Source of the DNA: Tolypothrix carrinoi HA7290-LM1
Lineage (GTDB): Bacteria > Cyanobacteriota > Cyanobacteriia > Cyanobacteriales > Nostocaceae
Assembly (NCBI GenBank): GCA_019358935.1
Contig: JAHHIK010000028.1
Span: 9,186 to 73,185 of the forward strand
Length of the DNA: 64,000 nt
Reading direction: 5' to 3'
The notes under the pieces are model-generated. The model saw only the letters and a list, made by a program, of their open reading frames with translations. It did no database searches and had not been told where the DNA came from. A program made the position numbers and the translations under genes. This document shows, in pieces, positions 3,657-40,475 of the stretch. The first letter of the stretch is position 1, and the number at the start of each line of letters is the position of its first letter.

Positions 3657-5003
3657 CTAGCTATTATTCATCTCCTGGATAAAATTGGTATAAACATTAC
3701 CTGACAAAAACTGGGGAGTTTCCATAATTTTTTGATGAAAGCCGATAGTTGTAGGTAATCCGGTAATTGCACATTCGCGTAATGCGCGTTTCATGCGGTT
3801 AATAGCTGTTTGGCGGTCTGGTCCCCAAACAATTAATTTGCCGATAAGCGAATCGTAGTAGGGAGGAATTTGGTAATCGGTGTAAACGTGGGAATCAATG
3901 CGAACACCGGGACCTCCAGGGGGGAGATAGCCGCTGATACGTCCGGGGGCTGGGCGAAAGTCATGGTCGGGGTCTTCAGCGTTGATGCGACATTCGATCG
4001 CATGACCTCGCAGAACTACTTGCTCTTGATTAATCTTGAGTCTTTCCCCTTGAGCAATCCGAATTTGTTCGCAAACCAAGTCTATGCCGGTAATCATCTC
4101 CGTAACTGGATGTTCAACTTGAATCCGGGTGTTCATTTCCATAAAGTAGAATTTACCGGATTTATCCAAGAGAAACTCGATTGTACCTGCTCCAGTGAAG
4201 TTGATAAACTGGGCAGCTTTGACGGCAGCTTCTCCCATTTTTTCTCGCAAATCTGGGTCTAAAGCAGGGCTGGGAGCTTCTTCTAGTAGCTTTTGATTGC
4301 GACGCTGAATTGAGCAATCCCGTTCGCCTAGGTGGATGACATTACCGTAATTATCCGCCAGAATTTGAAATTCAATGTGGCGCGGACGTTCGATAAATTT
4401 TTCTATATAAACGCCAGAATTACCAAAAGCGGCTCCGGCTTCGCCTTGTGCTGCTAGAAAAAGTTTGACAAATTCGCTTTCATGTTGTACCAAACGCATA
4501 CCGCGTCCACCACCACCAGCTGTGGCTTTAACCATCACTGGATAGCCAATATGTGAAGCGATCGCTAATCCTTCTTCCTCAGACTCTACCAACCCGTCAC
4601 TTCCCGGTACAGTCGGAACCCCGGCTTTTTGCATGGTTTCTTTTGCCGTTGATTTATCCCCCATTAAGCGAATCGCTTCCGCAGATGGACCAATAAATGC
4701 AATATGATGATCTGCACAAATTTCTGCAAACCTGGCATTTTCTGACAAAAAGCCATAACCCGGATGAATCGCAGTAGCATTGCGCGTCAGTGCCGCAGCA
4801 ATAATATTGGGAATATTCAAATAACTTTTACCGCTGGCAGGTTCGCCAATGCAAACCGCTTCGTCGGCAAGCTGGACGTGGAGAGCATTACGATCAACTG
4901 TAGAGTGAACTGCAACAGTAGCAATCCCCATTTCCTCACAGGCACGGAGAATGCGAAGTGCAATTTCTCCTCGATTGGCAATTAATATTTTATCAAACTT
5001 CAT
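3657..5003 (-). CDS. accC: Acetyl-CoA carboxylase biotin carboxylase subunit
   Basis: [43 protein letters not shown]. Confidence 0.98.
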
Positions 5004-8707: not shown

Positions 8708-10441
8708 ATGGCACTACCTGTTGTATCTGTCTTATCAACGCAGAAAAAAAAGAAACCGTCTTTAGTGCTGACGCTTTCATCTGCCGGGTTGTTGATTGGT
8801 GTGGGGAGTGCAGCATTCTGGCTTTTAACTCAGGGAAAATTATTTTCCAGAGATTTGCCAGTGGGTGCAAATATTATCCCTCAAGATGCCTTATTTGCGG
8901 TTTCTTTAACCACCGATGCCAGTCAATGGCAGAAATTGCGCTCTTTTGGCACAAAAGAAACCCAAGGAGAACTAGATAAGTATTTAGTGGAGTTGCGCGA
9001 TCGCTTTCTCACTAATAACGGCTACGATTTCCAAAAAGATATCAGTCCTTGGGTAGGCAATGAAGTCACAATTGCCATTCTTGCCCCAGACATGAAAAAA
9101 AATGCACCTACTGATGGAAGTGGTGCTACTAAAGAACAGTCGATGGTGATGGTTTTGCCAATAAAAAACCCACAAAGTGCTAAAACCATCTTGGCACAAC
9201 CCAAAATGCTCAAAGGTGGCAAATTAGTCGATCGCACCTATCAAGGAATTGCCATCAAACAAACTGAAGGGCAAAGTAAAGAAAACTTTTCCGCTGCCGT
9301 ACTAGATCAACGTTTCTTAGTCATCACTGATAATCCTAAAGCCACAGAAAGAGCGATTGATGCTTATAAAAATAAAACAACACTCGCTACAACAGGCGGT
9401 TTTGCAGATAATTTCCCGAAAATCGCTAACTACCAACCTTTCGCCCAGTTTTATGTAAATGTGCCGATAGCTGCTAAAATAGCAGCCGCTTCTCCAAACC
9501 GTCCTTTACCCGCTCAAGTTTTGGCTCAACTTCAGAACAACCAAGGTTTAGCGGGGACAATTACCTTAGAGTCAGAAGGAATACGCTTAAAAGGTGTTTC
9601 TTGGCTAAATCCGAATAGTCAACGTACCCTAGCGGTAGAAAACAACGCTGGGAATATGCAAAACCGCTTACCAGCAGAAACTTTAATGATGCTTTCTGGG
9701 GGTAATCTTAAACGGTTGTGGGCAGATTATGTTTTAACATCTCACTCTAATCCAGTTTCGCCCATACCACCAGAAGCACTTAGAAGTGGAGTGAAATCAC
9801 TCACCAATAATGAACTTGATTTAGATCGGGATTTATTAAGTTGGATGGGTGGTGAGTTTTCGGTTTCGGTGATGCCATCGATTGCGAAAGAAGGTTATAA
9901 AGAAGATTTTCGTGCGGCATTTGTATTCATGGTACAAGCAAGCGATCGCGCTTATGCTGAAGCATCAATAAAACGTCTGGATGACATCATAAAAAATCAA
10001 TATCAATTCCAAATTCAACAAAACACAATCGCAGGTAAACCTGCTGTCAACTGGATTGCACCTTATGGAACCTTAACTGCTACCCACGGTTGGTTAGATA
10101 ATGATGTCGCTTACTTAGTTATGGGTGCCCCTGTTACCAATAAAATTGTTCCTAAACCCAACAATACATTAGCTAGTACTTTCCCATTCCAAAAAACAGT
10201 TCCCTCAGATCCTAATCCGACAAACGGTCAGTTTTTCTTAGATGTGGAACGCACGGTGAAAAATTTTCCTTTACCGACGTTGTTCTCCAATCAAGAAACT
10301 GTACTCGAAGCAACGCGCTCAATTGGCATAACATCTGCCGTCAGTGACAGTCGTAGTAACCGCTACGACATTTTTCTCGAATTAAAAAAAGGTGATAAAC
10401 CAGCACCTCTTCCGACTCCGACAATTACACCCACTCCGTAA
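8708..10441 (+). CDS. DUF3352 domain protein
   Basis: N-terminal transmembrane segment; GANIIPQDALF, DISPWVG, LDRDLLSWMGGEF motifs. Confidence 0.8.
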   Translation: MALPVVSVLSTQKKKKPSLVLTLSSAGLLIGVGSAAFWLLTQGKLFSRDLPVGANIIPQDALFAVSLTTDASQWQKLRSFGTKETQGELDKYLVELRDRFLTNNGYDFQKDISPWVGNEVTIAILAPDMKKNAPTDGSGATKEQSMVMVLPIKNPQSAKTILAQPKMLKGGKLVDRTYQGIAIKQTEGQSKENFSAAVLDQRFLVITDNPKATERAIDAYKNKTTLATTGGFADNFPKIANYQPFAQFYVNVPIAAKIAAASPNRPLPAQVLAQLQNNQGLAGTITLESEGIRLKGVSWLNPNSQRTLAVENNAGNMQNRLPAETLMMLSGGNLKRLWADYVLTSHSNPVSPIPPEALRSGVKSLTNNELDLDRDLLSWMGGEFSVSVMPSIAKEGYKEDFRAAFVFMVQASDRAYAEASIKRLDDIIKNQYQFQIQQNTIAGKPAVNWIAPYGTLTATHGWLDNDVAYLVMGAPVTNKIVPKPNNTLASTFPFQKTVPSDPNPTNGQFFLDVERTVKNFPLPTLFSNQETVLEATRSIGITSAVSDSRSNRYDIFLELKKGDKPAPLPTPTITPTP

Positions 10442-27918: not shown

Positions 27919-28114
27919 TTGTCATACCATAAATCTTTTTTTCTTTAATTTAGCCTTTCTGGGATTGATTCGTGCCTCTCTACCAGACGCGTTGCGCGTT
28001 CGCAATGACTATAATATTTTGTCATTGCGGGAACAAACTGAAGTGTTCAAAGCAGCGTGTCGCAGACAAGCGATCGCTTTCGTATTGGGATTGCTTCGTG
28101 CCCCGCTTCGGACA

Positions 28115-28693
28115 TTATCCCCAAATTCGTTGCAGATTGAGTACAAAACCAGGTAAAACATTTAAGGCGGAAATAGTTTGAGGAAATTTTAAAATTTCCA
28201 CATCTTGTCCTGGACGATAAATTTCTACTTCCTGTTTTTTTCGGTTGATCAACCAACCAAGACGACACCCATTTTTCATATATTCATCCATTTTGTCTTG
28301 AACTTTTTTCAAAGTGTCGGATGGTGACATTATTTCAATGACAAAATCAGGACATAGGGGAATAAATTTTTCTTTTTGCTCTTTAGTCAAAGCATCCCAA
28401 CGAGATTTTTCTACCCAAGAAACATCTGGAGAACGGTCAGCCCCTGAAGGTAAAGTAAATCCAGTTGATGAATCAAAAACTTCGCCCAATTGATTTTGTT
28501 CATTCCATGATGCTACTTGAAGAATTAAATTAACATTACTTCTCCCTGTTTCTCCTCCCGTAGGTGGCATTATAATCAATTCTCCTTGGGCATTGCGTTC
28601 TAATTTTAAATCGGGGTTTTCTTCACACAATTGATAAAACTGCTCTCTTGTCAGTTTAATTACAGAATTGAGGTTTAATGTAAGTGCTGTCAT
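28115..28693 (-). CDS. Uma2 (DUF820) family endonuclease, copy A
   Basis: FDSSTGFTLP, SPDVSW, CPDFVIEIMS, LGWLIN. Confidence 0.92.
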   Translation of the reverse strand: MTALTLNLNSVIKLTREQFYQLCEENPDLKLERNAQGELIIMPPTGGETGRSNVNLILQVASWNEQNQLGEVFDSSTGFTLPSGADRSPDVSWVEKSRWDALTKEQKEKFIPLCPDFVIEIMSPSDTLKKVQDKMDEYMKNGCRLGWLINRKKQEVEIYRPGQDVEILKFPQTISALNVLPGFVLNLQRIWG

Positions 28694-28774
28694 AACAACC
28701 TCTAATTAACTCATCTATTATCAAAAATAGCATCGGCGACTTCTAGTCGCGGCGTTGCGCGTACAAAGTCCGCT

Positions 28775-28836
28775 AGCATTTACTATGCAAGGGCGAAAAA
28801 TACCTGACTTACCCATCCAGCCTGAAGAGCGATCGC
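28775..28836 (+). pseudogene. Duplicated 5' fragment of the prolyl oligopeptidase gene
   Basis: cgaaaaatacctgacttacccatccagcc..agcgatcgc matches 31288-31329. Confidence 0.8.
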
Positions 28837-28895
28837 AACGGCTAGAAATTAATATGTGCCTCTCTACGAGACGCGTTGCGCGATCGCTTCGGACA

Positions 28896-29474
28896 TTATC
28901 CCCAAATTCGTTGCAGATTGAGTACAAAACCAGGTAGAATATTTTCCCCGGAAATAGTTTGAGGAAATTTTAAAACTTCCACATTTTGTCCTGGACGATA
29001 AATTTCTACTTCCTGTTTTTTTCTGTTTATCAACCAACCTAGACGACAACCATTTTCGATATACTCTTGCATCTTGTTCTGAGTTTTTTTCAAGCTGTCA
29101 TTAGATGACATTATTTCAATGACAAAATCAGGACATAAGGGAATAAATTTTTCTTTTTGCTCTTTAGTCAAAGCATCCCAACGAGATTTTTCTACCCAAG
29201 AAACATCTGGAGAACGGTCAGAACCTGAAGGTAAAGTAAATCCAGTTGATGAATCAAAAACTTCGCCCAATTGATTTTGGTCGTTCCAGAACCATATTTG
29301 AGCGTTAATAGTAGAATTACTTCTCCCTGTTTCTCCTCCCGTAGGTGGCATTATAATTAATTCTCCTTGGGCATTGCGTTCTAATTTTAAATCGGGATTT
29401 TCTTCACACAATTGATAAAACTGCTCTCTTGTCAGTTTAATTACAGAATTGAGGTTTAATGTAAGTGCTGTCAT
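28896..29474 (-). CDS. Uma2 (DUF820) family endonuclease, copy B (tandem duplicate, 781 bp offset)
   Basis: Near-identical to copy A, including about 80 bp of upstream sequence. Confidence 0.92.
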   Translation of the reverse strand: MTALTLNLNSVIKLTREQFYQLCEENPDLKLERNAQGELIIMPPTGGETGRSNSTINAQIWFWNDQNQLGEVFDSSTGFTLPSGSDRSPDVSWVEKSRWDALTKEQKEKFIPLCPDFVIEIMSSNDSLKKTQNKMQEYIENGCRLGWLINRKKQEVEIYRPGQNVEVLKFPQTISGENILPGFVLNLQRIWG

Positions 29475-29737
29475 ATCAACCTCTAATTAACTCATCTATT
29501 ATCAAAAATAGCATCGGTGACTTCTAGTCGCGGCGTTGCGCGTACAAAGTCCGCATGACAAGGACTTAAGAAAAGTTGAAACCCGCGTAGTAGGCGGGTT
29601 TAGTCTGTGTAGCTGCGATTTCAATTGCCCAGTACTGCAAAGCCTCAGCCCCGACGATATACCGCGTCATCTGCTTGATTTCCTTGTTATTGATGATGTG
29701 GGCTTACGCACTGTCAATATTTGCGAAGATTTAGTCT

Positions 29738-29845
29738 TGTTCTATCTTAGAACTATGTCACGAAAAAATTAGCATTTACTATGACCAGCGAAAAACACCT
29801 GACTTACCCATCCAGTCCGAAAAGCGATCGCGTTGATAACTACCG
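29738..29845 (+). pseudogene. Second duplicated 5' fragment (upstream region plus first codons) of the prolyl oligopeptidase gene
   Basis: gttctatcttagaactatgtca...atgaccagcgaaaaacacctgacttacccatccag..agcgatcgcgttgataactacc matches 31234-31342. Confidence 0.85.
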
Positions 29846-29977
29846 CAGTTCGTTTTTCCATACGCTTTTAGCAGAATGCAATCCACCAAGCTTGCTCTTG
29901 GTGACCTCGTTAATGATACGGTAATACTCAATTGAAGACTCCCAACTCATTCCCCCGATTAGCCCAATTGTTTTCAC
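29840..29977 (-). pseudogene. Truncated aspartate/glutamate racemase (YgeA/RacX-like); relic of second integron cassette
   Basis: GAGGAG RBS then GTG; translates MKTIGLIGGMSWESSIEYYRIINEVTKSKLGGLHSAKSV, then stops after a few unrelated codons. Confidence 0.85.
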
Positions 29978-30079
29978 GATGGCTCCTCAAATGACTAAGA
30001 CGATTGCTTGCCACTTCACAGTTTAATTGAACTTCTCACAGGTGACTTTGAAGTACTGTCCTAACCCAGAATAGGAGCC

Positions 30080-30163
30080 GTATAACGACCAGGGTAAGCG
30101 GCGATGAAAGAATTATAAACGAAGCGAGAAAACTTTGTTCGCCGCTCCAACTACTTGTTAGCT
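30080..30163 (-). mobile_element. Integron attC site (84 bp)
   Basis: Minus strand AGCTAAC-aagtagttgg-AGCGGCGA...TCGCCGCT-taccctggtc-GTTATAC, i.e. R''/L''..L'/R' layout, 41 bp after the MOSC stop codon. Confidence 0.8.
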
Positions 30164-30204
30164 TGCGATACTATACGACGATGCTGGTTCAGGATCAATT
30201 AGTG

Positions 30205-30756
30205 TCAGACCCGATCAAGAGCTTGGTGTGGTTCCGGTGGTAGTTCGATTCGGATTGAGTTGCCAGGGCGTATCTCGCCGCCAACCATAACGATCCCCAT
30301 GACCCCAGCCTTACGAATGAGTTTGCCGTGTTCGTCACGTCCCAACACTGCCGCCATCAGTCCCGACTGGAACTGATCTAACTGGGCGCAGGGATTTCTC
30401 AACCCCGTCAACTCGACAACTGCCGTGTCCCCTAGATATAGCTGTGCGCCCGTCGGCAAACTCAACAGATCAATACCGCGTGTCGTAACATTCTCACCCA
30501 TTTGCCCGGCTGACACCTCAAAGCCAAAAGTTCGCAATTCATCATGCAGTTCAGCGTGAATTAAATGCACTTGGCGTAAATTCGGCTGCGTTGGATCAAC
30601 CGCCACTCGCGATCGATGCTTGACCGTCTTGCCCATGTGTGAATCACCTTCAACACCTAGCCCAGCTAGAAGTTGAATACTCTCCTGATTTAGTTTAGTA
30701 AATGTGTGTGTTGTACTGCGGCTGACTGCTATCACTACACCACCCATCTCCATCAC
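30205..30756 (-). CDS. MOSC domain protein (integron gene cassette)
   Basis: GLGVEGD, RQVHLI, MGENVTTRG, LRNPCAQLD, GVMGIV..GGEIRPG; GC-richer than its flanks. Confidence 0.9.
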   Translation of the reverse strand: MMEMGGVVIAVSRSTTHTFTKLNQESIQLLAGLGVEGDSHMGKTVKHRSRVAVDPTQPNLRQVHLIHAELHDELRTFGFEVSAGQMGENVTTRGIDLLSLPTGAQLYLGDTAVVELTGLRNPCAQLDQFQSGLMAAVLGRDEHGKLIRKAGVMGIVMVGGEIRPGNSIRIELPPEPHQALDRV

Positions 30757-30877
30757 CTCACTGTTTCTAAATCACAAATCCCATTCTAAATCTGACCTCT
30801 GCCAGTCGCTCTATCTTCACTGAACTTTCAACATCAACAAATAACCTTCAAAAGACTGCCACCACCCGTAAACGAAG

Positions 30878-30915
30878 CCGCATAACTATTTATTATACAT
30901 AAAATTACCGTCTAA
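30878..30915 (-). mobile_element. Putative attI site
   Basis: Minus strand TGTATAATAAATA-GTTATGC (core 30880-30886), located between the first cassette and the divergent intI relic. Confidence 0.6.
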
Positions 30916-31112
30916 TTACTCAATTTGGGGTAGTTATACAGAATTTTTCCATCTAATATCCCTATTTGGACACTAGACGGAAATTGTCCGTATATTTACC
31001 CTAATTGAGTCTGTATGTGGCATTCTTGCGTATATCCTCGGCTAATAGCCAGAATTTTTCTGGATGTTATCCAAATCAGGACATGAGACGGAAATTTCCT
31101 TGATATTTTTCT

Positions 31113-31229
31113 CTGGAAAAACGCCCAAAAAAGTTGTTGAAACAGGTTCAGGACGCAATTCGGCTCAAGCATTATTCTTACAATACAGAAAAAAGCTACA
31201 TTGACGCGGATGTGCTCTCAACCCCTTAG
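31113..31229 (+). pseudogene. intI: Integron integrase N-terminal relic
   Basis: (L)EKRPKKLLKQVQDAIRLKHYSYNTEKSYID resembles the IntI SAM-like N-terminus (LLdQVRdAIRLKHYSxRTExxY); start codon is CTG and similarity ends after about 31 codons. Confidence 0.82.
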
Positions 31230-31278
31230 CAAGGTTCTATCTTAGAACTATGTCAATAATGGATTAGCCTCTAACATT

Positions 31279-33345
31279 ATGCCTGCCGAAAAACACCTGA
31301 CTTACCCATCCAGCCCTTATAGCGATCGCGTTGATGACTACCACGGTACCACAGTTACAGATCCTTACCGCTTCTTAGAAGACCCGGACTCAGAAGAAAC
31401 CAAAGCTTGGGTTGAGGCACAAAATAAAGTTACCTTTGGCTACTTGAACGAAATTCCCGCAAGAGAAAAAATCAAGCAACGCCTCACCAAATTGTGGGAT
31501 TATGAAAAATATAGTATCCCCTTTCAAGAAGGCGAAAACTACTTTTATTTCAAAAATGACGGACTGCAAAACCAAAGCGTCCTCTATACCCTGAAAACTC
31601 TCGACGGTGAACCGAAAGTTTTACTCGACCCGAACAAACTTTCAGCAGATGGTACTGTTGCGCTTTCCGGTTTATCTATCAGTGAAAACGGTAAACTTTT
31701 AGCATACGGTTTATCCTCATCTGGTTCTGACTGGCAAGAATGGAAAGTCCGAGATGTGGAAACAACTGAAGATTTACCAGACCATTTAAAGTGGATTAAA
31801 TTCTCTGGTGCATCGTGGACAAATGACAATCAAGGCTTTTTCTACAGCCGCTACGATGAACCAAATGAAAAAACCAAATTAGAAGATGTCAACTATTATC
31901 AAAAGCTTTATTACCACAAATTGGGTACATCCCAATCAGAAGACACATTAATTTACCAACGTCCCGACCAAAAAGAATGGGGATTTGGTAAAGCTGTCAC
32001 AGAAGATGGACATTATTTAGTAATTTCCGTTTGGTCAGGAACTGACTCGAAAAATCTGTTTTTTTACAAAGATTTGACTAACCCAAATGCAGAAGTAGTC
32101 GAACTAATTAAGGAATTTGAAGCCGATTATAGCTTTATTGATAATGATGATAGCGTCTTTTATTTTCGTACAGATTTAGATGCACCCCGCGCTAGAGTTA
32201 TTGCCATTGATAGTAAAAATCCTGACAAATCAGCTTGGCAAGAAATAATTCCCCAAGCTGCGGAAACTTTAGAAAGTGTCGGCATCCTTAACAATCAATT
32301 TGTTGCTGATTATCTCAAAGATGCTCACGGCAAAGTCAAAATTTTTGACCTCAACGGCACTTTTGTCAGAGAGGTAGAATTACCCGGACTTGGTTCAGTC
32401 GGAGGCTTTAACGGCAAACGTCATGATACCGAAACTTTTTATAGCTTCACTAGCTTTACCACACCGCCAACTATTTATCGCTACGACATAGTAAGCGGAA
32501 AAAGTCAAGTTTTTCGACAGCCTAAGGTAGATTTTAATCCTGCTGATTATGAAACTAAACAAGTTTTCTATCGCAGCAAAGATAATACGCAAGTGCCGAT
32601 GTTTATCACCTATAAAAAGGGGATTAAACTTGATGGAAATAATCCCACATATCTGTATGCTTATGGCGGTTTTAATATCTCTCTAACTCCGAGTTTTTCT
32701 GTCAGTAGCTTAGTATGGCTAGAAATGGGTGGTGTCTATGCTGTGCCCAATTTACGCGGTGGTGGTGAATATGGGGAAGAATGGCATCAAGCGGGAATGA
32801 AGCTGAAAAAGCAGAATGTTTTTGATGACTTTATTGCTGCTGCCGAGTGGTTGATTGGCAATGGGTATACCAAGAGTGATAAGTTGGCGATCGCTGGTGG
32901 TAGCAATGGCGGATTATTAGTTGGTGCTTGCATGACTCAGCGTCCCGATTTGTTTGGTGCAGCTTTGCCAACAGTCGGGGTGATGGATATGTTGCGCTTT
33001 CATAAATTTACCATCGGCTGGGCGTGGATTTCTGAATATGGTTCGCCGGATAATCTAGAAGAGTTCAAAGCGCTTTATGCTTATTCCCCACTGCATAACC
33101 TCAAACCCGGTACAGCTTATCCAGCAACGATGATTACCACAGCCGATCATGACGATCGCGTTGTCCCTGCTCATAGTTTCAAATTTGCCGCTGCTTTGCA
33201 AGCCGCACACACAGGTGAGAATCCTGTATTAATTAGAATTGAGACGAAAGCGGGACATGGTGCAGGTAAACCTACAGCTAAAATTATCGAAGAATCCGCA
33301 GATAAGTGGGCTTTCTTGGTGCGTACCTTGGATATGAAAGTTTAG
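31279..33345 (+). CDS. Prolyl oligopeptidase (peptidase S9A)
   Basis: GGSNGG nucleophile, DDRV, AGHG triad motifs; beta-propeller N-terminal region. Confidence 0.96.
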   Translation: MPAEKHLTYPSSPYSDRVDDYHGTTVTDPYRFLEDPDSEETKAWVEAQNKVTFGYLNEIPAREKIKQRLTKLWDYEKYSIPFQEGENYFYFKNDGLQNQSVLYTLKTLDGEPKVLLDPNKLSADGTVALSGLSISENGKLLAYGLSSSGSDWQEWKVRDVETTEDLPDHLKWIKFSGASWTNDNQGFFYSRYDEPNEKTKLEDVNYYQKLYYHKLGTSQSEDTLIYQRPDQKEWGFGKAVTEDGHYLVISVWSGTDSKNLFFYKDLTNPNAEVVELIKEFEADYSFIDNDDSVFYFRTDLDAPRARVIAIDSKNPDKSAWQEIIPQAAETLESVGILNNQFVADYLKDAHGKVKIFDLNGTFVREVELPGLGSVGGFNGKRHDTETFYSFTSFTTPPTIYRYDIVSGKSQVFRQPKVDFNPADYETKQVFYRSKDNTQVPMFITYKKGIKLDGNNPTYLYAYGGFNISLTPSFSVSSLVWLEMGGVYAVPNLRGGGEYGEEWHQAGMKLKKQNVFDDFIAAAEWLIGNGYTKSDKLAIAGGSNGGLLVGACMTQRPDLFGAALPTVGVMDMLRFHKFTIGWAWISEYGSPDNLEEFKALYAYSPLHNLKPGTAYPATMITTADHDDRVVPAHSFKFAAALQAAHTGENPVLIRIETKAGHGAGKPTAKIIEESADKWAFLVRTLDMKV

Positions 33346-39558: not shown

Positions 39559-40136
39559 AGGGAAGAAATATTTTATTTTTTAACTCTTCTGCTTGCCCCT
39601 TTTCCTAAATTATGAAATAAGTTAGAACTTACGCATTGACAGAAAGTTGAGCATGTGCATTCAAGCCCACCTTTTGTGAAGATGTTCCAGAATGAAATCA
39701 CGAGCAATCAATAATGTCCTAACCTAATCAGTTCAGAAATACGCTGCTCGAATAGGTCGCTTCTTTCCCGGCTTTGGGGGGAGCGAGTATGAATGTAGGT
39801 TGCGATCGCTCTCACCATAACGTTGAAACTTTCTAAGATTACTGAGGCTCAAACAAATCATTTCCGATCCAATCAATACGATCGTTATCTCACAACAAAT
39901 CCCCTTTGATTGTTTGCAGTCTAAATTCCCAATATTGGGCATCTGCAAAGCGCAAAAATCAATTCAGATGTTTCAAATTGGCAGACGATTTAATAGTTTT
40001 TTAGTAGACAATTCTAAAACTTTCCTCTCTCTACGGGGCTAAGTTGAAGTATAGAATTGCGATCGCTTTAAGCAACAGCCACGTATAAATCAGCTTGTGC
40101 TTCTTGCCAGAGCTATGGCTAAAGTCGAATTTAATT

Positions 40137-40353
40137 AGCAAAATGGCATTTGACTTACTCAAAATGAACTTTTGCTTTCTCATTTTGGTGTTTTCCGCAA
40201 GCAAAATGGCATTTGACTTACTCAAAATAAGCTTTTGCTTTCTCATTTTGGTGTTTTCCGCAAGCAAAATGGCATTTGACTTACTCATTTTGGTGTTTTC
40301 CGCAAGCAAAATGGCATTTGACTTACTCATTTCAGTGTTTTCCGCAAGCAAAA
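40137..40353. repeat. Tandem repeat built from 21-bp modules (63, 63, 42, 42 bp units)
   Basis: GCAAAATGGCATTTGACTTACTC recurs four times. Confidence 0.9.
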
Positions 40354-40475
40354 CGCGCTGGCTCCAATTTCGCGTCTCTACAATTAGGACTCATATTTGA
40401 TTTTTGAAATATACGTAAAAGCCGCCTAGAATCATCTAGACGGCGTTTAATTGAGTCTAAAATTGGAAATGGCTA

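Follow-up and report, generated by a model that had tools for sequence, protein, structure and literature searches.

The locus examined here raises the question of whether a single MOSC gene in Tolypothrix carrinoi HA7290-LM1 sits in the remains of an integron and, if so, whether any of that integron can still move. The window—that is, the whole 64,000-nucleotide stretch of DNA analyzed—corresponds to positions 9186–73185 of contig C28 in the assembly (G000; 7.96 Mb, 184 contigs, completeness 99.65%). The original prediction of a decayed integron was upheld, with its intI relic, attI, MOSC cassette with attC, and racemase gene start all lying where they had been placed, including the cassette limits of 30086–30885. 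It is highly probable that the locus is a dead chromosomal cyanobacterial integron, consisting of an intI stub, attI, one complete MOSC cassette whose attC is worn, and a racemase cassette that has been truncated, and that it is likely frozen, because a working integrase was not found in the genome.

This layout is not an assembly artifact, because a single contig of X1, which may be the source run, crosses 29525–32000 with zero differences and run X2 matches 30723–31988 with 7 differences. Neighbors of the relic are a tandem pair of Uma2 genes and a gene for prolyl oligopeptidase; another is, judged by its sequence, presumably a cheA-like chemotaxis gene. An Rfam scan of the whole window returned a tRNA as the sole match. 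Elsewhere in the window (40031–40400), tandem low-complexity repeats give rise to overlapping repetitive ORFs on both strands.

Integrase stub, attI, and attC

Beside attI and divergent from the cassettes, the plus strand carries codons 1–31 of an integron integrase gene (31113–31205), reading LEKRPKKLLKQVQDAIRLKHYSYNTEKSYID. The claimed IntI-like N-terminal peptide was borne out by profile searches, in which every library match was of integrase type: PF13495 was the sole Pfam match (E = 2.3e-4, below the cut-off), and NCBIfam returned only the integron-integrase models PRK15417 (E = 0.0095) and TIGR02249 (E = 0.041). These E-values are modest because the peptide is short; identity to the IntI N-termini in relatives' loci reaches 67%–83% across 29–31 residues, with 80% against full-length IntI. 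DNA homology with complete integrons of the family is unbroken from the attI core, where its left end is the crossover, to intI codon 31, and the profile matches together with this homology establish intI ancestry. At its right joint, the stub meets the upstream region of the prolyl oligopeptidase gene through an imperfect microhomology of ~11 bp. No protein is expected from the stub, which starts with CTG where relatives have ATG and whose frame continues into unrelated oligopeptidase-upstream DNA to a stop at 31227–31229.

The attI simple site (30880–30898, minus strand) comprises an L-like GTATAAT, a 5-bp spacer, and the core GTTATGC (30886–30880), which directly follows the 12-mer GTATAATAAATA and is crossed over after its first base, between 30886 and 30885. 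A scan of 19 relatives' loci located GTATAATAAATA followed by GTT in 6 loci, at 7 sites in all, four of them adjoining a full-length intI, with close variants in other loci. Sequences diverge after GTT at these sites, as they do at 30898–30884, and the predicted core is thus common to complete family integrons, with homology stopping at the crossover. The exact attI 15-mer also occurs once on contig C33, where it has no integron context. Although attI is unknown for most integrons, according to PMC4889954, and annotation tools usually cannot search for it, the cyanobacterial site could be located by comparison. The site contains TATAAT; a promoter scan gave 2 sigma70-type sites against 3.1 expected, none directed into the MOSC gene.

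Between attI and the stub lie six degenerate 21-bp palindromes of the type TATACGGAA-N-TTTCCGTATA (30894–31105, starting at 30894, 30935, 30974, 31014, 31046, and 31085), mostly spaced ~40 bp apart. Non-overlapping matches numbered 7 against a shuffle mean of 0.48, and none of 2000 shuffles reached 7, a test that speaks to repetition rather than function, the consensus having been derived from the same regions. Each of the 11 further attI regions inspected has this array between attI and intI, and relatives (L073–L087, L103, and L201) carry 3–6 palindromic 21-mers at a ~40-bp period. These palindromes would likely be protein-binding sites; because each half resembles the GTTATAC core, our guess is that they serve as accessory IntI sites, operators being the alternative. 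An apparent 30-bp deletion in the attI region, relative to family integrons, was considered as a sign of decay and dropped, as L103, L081, and contig C12 share the compact 40-bp spacing. Our literature search, thin on subscription journals, turned up no publication that describes this locus or a repeat array at a cyanobacterial attI.

The 84-bp attC-like palindrome (30080–30163, minus strand) reads, by boxes, R'' AGCTAAC, L'' GTTGGAGC, L' GCTTACC, and R' GTTATAC. It was scored with a home-made covariance model rather than that of IntegronFinder, built from 35 attC sites in relatives' arrays with the window site left out. In this training set, 89.8% of cells pair, changes on both sides occur in 83 cells compared with 27 in shuffles, and pairing falls to 24%–54% in slid controls. 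The predicted site passes the model, though degenerate, with 34 bits (E = 3.2e-5 in 96 kb; E = 0.0027 genome-wide), and is the sole match in the window and the lowest of nine in the genome, the other eight scoring 46.7–84.3 bits. A sequence-only HMM gave it 12.9 bits (E = 0.87 in the genome), and plain folding was not significant (z = −1.66 and −1.68; 12 and 15 of 200 shuffles fold equally well).

Decay is evident in the L box, whose 7 positions give 5 Watson-Crick pairs, against 6–7 in 28 of 35 relatives, and in the second extrahelical A, an alignment gap here that is filled in 34 of 35 relatives; extrahelical bases of attC contact the integrase, as described in PMC11641012. Two contigs of run X6 carry a near-identical site with a fully paired L box, so the decay is likely recent and particular to this lineage. 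The cassette start GTTATGC forms 4/7 pairs with R'' AGCTAAC, a value found in 4 of 27 cassettes of relatives, while 16 of 27 pair fully (7/7). HIP1, discussed below, often stands directly 5' of R'' (GCGATCGC plus one base; L074, L075, L078, and L080), and the window has a degenerate look-alike at this position.

Cassettes of the relic and supply of integrase

Cassette 1 spans 800 bp (30086–30885, minus strand) and holds a leader, an intact single-domain MOSC gene (30205–30756; 183 aa from GTG, or 180 aa from ATG at 30747), and the attC. The single MOSC ORF, as had been claimed, matches PF03473 well above the curated cut-off (38.8 versus 22.7 bits; E = 1e-9). Its residue C123, in an RNPC motif and kept in 10 of 10 close sequences, is likely the Moco-binding cysteine. 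The match to the YiiM model is weak (E = 0.012), and a sequence search of the PDB returned no structure of a relative at E ≤ 0.01. According to PMC5818509, N-hydroxylated base analogues are reduced by YiiM and YcbX via an invariant cysteine. With these enzymes and mARC, the product shares PF03473 and a similarly placed cysteine (C123 versus C119/C120; PMC5818509), but it belongs to a short stand-alone subfamily. By family analogy, its likely role is that of a molybdenum-cofactor reductase acting on N-hydroxylated compounds; the genome also carries moaA and two other MOSC genes.

Comparison with nine close homologs gave dN of 0.07–0.15 and dS of 0.8–2.0 (one saturated), and 13 synonymous against 7 non-synonymous changes are private to this copy (p = 2e-4). 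These substitution patterns show purifying selection on the gene, a signal drawn from a long branch and perhaps older than the gene's entry into this genome. The MOSC gene would be the sole part of the relic still able to work and, as had been suggested, may still be expressed; a look through the sequencing runs brought up no RNA run, which is neutral as to expression.

The closest named relatives of the gene are cyanobacterial. We fetched 80 MOSC relatives and scanned their loci with a cyanobacterial attC HMM. Phormidesmis priestleyi ULC007 (L103) was found to carry a 325-aa intI, attI, and the same MOSC cassette in first position, with an attC of 65.6 bits; it aligns with the window from crossover to crossover, and its start, GTTAGCT, forms 7/7 pairs with R''. 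The same cassette is preceded by an intI stub in L105 and by an attC in L100, and has a decayed attC behind it in L101; L100 and L105 likewise begin with GTTAGCT. The MOSC family is mostly not cassette-borne, because the remaining loci gave no clear match to the HMM (L102 a partial one only). The idea that the cassette is a fusion of two, suggested by the 4/7 pairing between its start and R'', was excluded by the end-to-end homology with L103. In an Acidobacteriota MAG (L108), a MOSC homolog (4001–4540) lies between hairpins that look attC-like by eye, which suggests cassette status in another phylum; the cyanobacterial model does not match them.

Cassette 2 is a stub (29862–30085, minus strand) with a cyanobacterial-type leader and ~39 codons of an Asp/Glu racemase gene, whose predicted start was confirmed (GTG at 29977; PRK10200, E = 3e-16) and which is cut at 29862. 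Its leader is homologous to the sequences after GTT in L183 and L184, and run X2 has an intact racemase copy with the same leader. The closest intact gene, 94% identical to the stub, occurs in genome G360 and has no attC match, so cassette status rests on position and leader. That intact gene (L180:1400–2260) lies inside a direct repeat of ~26 bases beginning at a HIP1 or HIP1-like site, possibly another HIP1-linked insertion. Unrelated cassettes share the leader GCTTCGTTT..GGT..GGCAG..TTTGAAG right after GTT, in the window (30830–30885 and 30030–30085) as well as in L076, L077, L079, L080, L183, and L184; this leader looks like the loop part of the attC consensus and is perhaps a vestige of cassette-making.

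We looked for a full intI, and none was detected in the assembly: the TIGR02249 search gave no match at the cut-off (best 53.8 versus 265 bits), and in a tblastn search with seven IntI proteins the stub was the sole IntI-like match above 45% identity with a good E-value, although an unassembled intI is possible in an assembly of this many contigs. The eight best-scoring other tyrosine recombinases in the genome lack the ~36-residue IntI insertion (67–73 versus 108 residues). At E ≤ 1e-30, TIGR02249 matched in none of the 11 genus genomes (this one and 10 others, two of them <80% complete), and 13 of 301 family genomes scored above the cut-off, one with a GC-rich, foreign-looking gene and several with stops. 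Five weak IntI-tail matches at contig ends (E ~5) were set aside; the three inspected are one shared repeat, which we take to resemble the end of a group II intron. Excision of the MOSC cassette is unlikely, because no intact intI was found in this genome or the 10 others and the attC is the weakest of nine; the predicted excision by an intact IntI from another place in the genome is thus unsupported.

Eight more solitary attC sites lie on eight other contigs of the assembly, as located with the covariance model (C96:2864–2951, C43:13383–13469, C12:53175–53262, C90:18120–18206, C9:26366–26446, C2:153885–153968, C59:36292–36379, and C6:71995–72081). All 11 genus genomes have solitary attC sites (1–9 each, 45 in total), none with an intact intI match. 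A second attI relic was seen at C43:10466–13469, with an inserted element, presumably IS607-like, inside its first cassette, and a third, with two cassette starts, at C12:51727–53262. A shorter second intI start stub lies near a very decayed attC at C140:4417–4477. Genome G009 holds a second relic (L201:8112–9496, its contig C120), 13 kb from its intI stub, comprising attI, a fragment from inside intI, a single cassette gene of 279 aa, and an attC scoring 67 bits.

Oligopeptidase 5' copies and HIP1 around the relic

The relic is bordered on both sides by prolyl oligopeptidase sequence. On the left is a duplicated 5' end of that gene (29739–29862, plus strand), whose homology runs to 29844, with HIP1 at 29824, and which ends in an 18-bp linker common to G009. 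On the right are a native-type upstream region and the intact gene (31207–33345, plus strand; gene at 31279–33345). A third, shorter 5' copy (28774–28838, plus strand) ends at HIP1 between the tandem Uma2 genes, so that the window holds this 5' end three times, at 28774–28838, at 29739–29844, and in the working copy. HIP1 is GCGATCGC, with 7884 copies in the genome (~1 per kb).

The two Uma2 (PF05685) genes (28115–28693 and 28896–29474, in the region 28104–29554) are 92% identical and 781 bp apart; genus relatives have 0–2 copies. Extra truncated oligopeptidase copies occur in 4 of 8 genus relatives examined, where they bracket Uma2 genes or a two-gene pair that we assume to be a DUF433/DUF5615-like toxin-antitoxin module. 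Five of 7 truncated copies end at HIP1 and the other two 13 bases beyond it; by junction sequence, the seven represent ~4 independent events, 3 of them at HIP1. In genome G010, the junction of one copy lies at HIP1, and beyond it comes the same sequence that, in the window, stands after another HIP1 (position 28070), as a HIP1-to-HIP1 crossover would give. Published support for a role of HIP1 in recombination is no more than suggestive (PMC4390886; 10.1101/2024.09.10.611283).

The joint at the intI stub is common to G009 and X6, and that at the racemase stub is common to X4, so both predate this strain and the modules have been reshuffled. In run X4, identity ends 4 bases beyond the crossover of the attC, and 1081 other letters stand in place of the MOSC gene, attI, and the intI stub. 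X6 also has a joint of 31131 to 30040, in one 297-bp contig. Metagenome contigs were scanned for the exact patterns of the left joint and of the racemase stub, with no match to either.

Origin, class, and meaning of the relic

On the account we favor, a cyanobacterial-type IntI would have inserted the racemase cassette at attI and then the MOSC cassette. Two illegitimate joints would have followed, one removing intI after codon 31 and fusing the remainder upstream of the oligopeptidase gene at the short microhomology, the other cutting the racemase gene at codon 39. The leftover 1.35-kb block would then have been carried as one cargo module among several between repeated oligopeptidase 5' ends, probably moved by host recombination rather than by IntI while its att sites decayed. 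This order of events is drawn from few relatives.

That the att-like sequences resemble att sites by accident, in AT-rich DNA between genes beside an ordinary MOSC gene, might seem to follow from the folding z of only −1.7, the attI 15-mer on C33 outside any integron, and the many MOSC relatives among the 80 (most of them) without a cyanobacterial-type attC; yet the end-to-end homology with the first cassette of L103, the five parts in the right order and strand, and the covariance match (E = 3e-5) refute this reading, and we give it practically no credence. Improbable, but far less so, is a dormant platform, in which attI and attC remain usable and an IntI supplied in trans, from an unassembled gene or incoming DNA, excises the MOSC cassette or adds others. 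In its favor stand an intact attI core, the existence in the family of complete integrons that carry this attI, and the replacement by 1081 letters past the attC crossover in X4, which may record an earlier cassette exchange. Nevertheless, searches of this genome and 10 others of the genus turned up no intI, two L-box positions of the attC are mismatched and one conserved extrahelical base is missing from it, and with a single attC, excision requires attI × attC, which is the less efficient reaction. Mobilization in trans has been proposed for the cassettes of CALINs, according to PMC4889954.

The trimmed relic may alternatively have entered as a block by natural transformation from a relative, with the oligopeptidase homology as an anchor and an illegitimate left joint creating the 5' duplication, a serious contender to which we lend somewhat less than even weight. 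Identity to the working 5' end in genus relatives is 89%–94% for the left 5' copy and 82%–87% for the copy behind the stub, which is of the type of the stub-linked copy in G009 and of another genus; the overlap at the left joint is only 1–4 bases; and HIP1 in homology arms raises integration, as reported in 10.1101/2024.09.10.611283. Against this, an allele switch was sought inside the oligopeptidase gene and none was clear, both joints are older than the strain (the stub joint being in G009 and X6 and the racemase joint in X4), and duplication followed by deletion in one lineage yields the same picture.

As to class, the dead cyanobacterial integron described here is best called an integron relic, as it departs on one tested feature each from a complete integron, a CALIN, and a SALIN. 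It shares with integrons an attI with a GTT crossover upstream of intI, attC boxes, unpaired spacer, and extrahelical bases (degenerate), and a MOSC cassette present in other integrons, but instead of a full intI with the IntI-specific insertion it has 31 codons without ATG, and none was found elsewhere in the assembly. Complete cyanobacterial integrons (L073, L074, L076, L078, and L103) share its IntI N-terminus, attI core, repeat array, 84–91-bp attC type, and cassette leader, and L103 the same MOSC cassette, whereas the relic has an intI of 31 codons lacking a start, a decayed attC, and only 1.3 cassettes. Cyanobacterial integrons and a cyanobacterial attC model have already been published (PMC4889954, PMC8352920), and published IntegronFinder tables may list cyanobacterial loci of the same kind.

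The locus had also been called CALIN-like, which holds insofar as CALINs and SALINs likewise have attC sites without a working integrase (PMC4889954; 10.1101/2022.09.11.507474); however, a CALIN is defined in PMC4889954 by two or more attC sites, and the 64-kb window has one, together with attI and the stub. A SALIN, as described in 10.1101/2022.09.11.507474, is a single attC with no other att site or integrase gene nearby, whereas here attI and the stub lie 0.7–1 kb away. SALINs are proposed in the same source to arise via attG insertion, and the presence of attI and the intI stub indicates that the relic, by contrast, arose by decay; a scanner missing the stub would label it a SALIN. With the Xanthomonas integrons described as having a dead intI (10.1101/2025.06.18.660453, PMC8618304), it shares a truncated intI, retained attI and cassettes, and a frozen array. 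Unlike those, as far as these sources describe them, it is in a cyanobacterium, has one attC left and a second cassette that is cut, and occupies a cargo site at duplicated gene starts rather than a conserved genus integron site.

Integrase-dead integrons and cyanobacterial integrons are both already known, and the relic is in this respect of an ordinary type. The MOSC gene was, however, seen to travel between cyanobacterial families as an integron cassette, and the site offers a natural locus for studying HIP1-ended junctions, bearing on the question of the role of HIP1. We tentatively raise, while doubting it ourselves, the idea of a capture array without an integrase, built on a repeatedly duplicated oligopeptidase start, often HIP1-ended, and carrying the relic as cargo. 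If so, each repeat would bracket a swappable module, be it the Uma2 genes, the toxin-antitoxin-like pair, or the integron wreck, and HIP1-guided recombination would build a cassette-like array and spread pieces of dead integrons across genomes that have no IntI.
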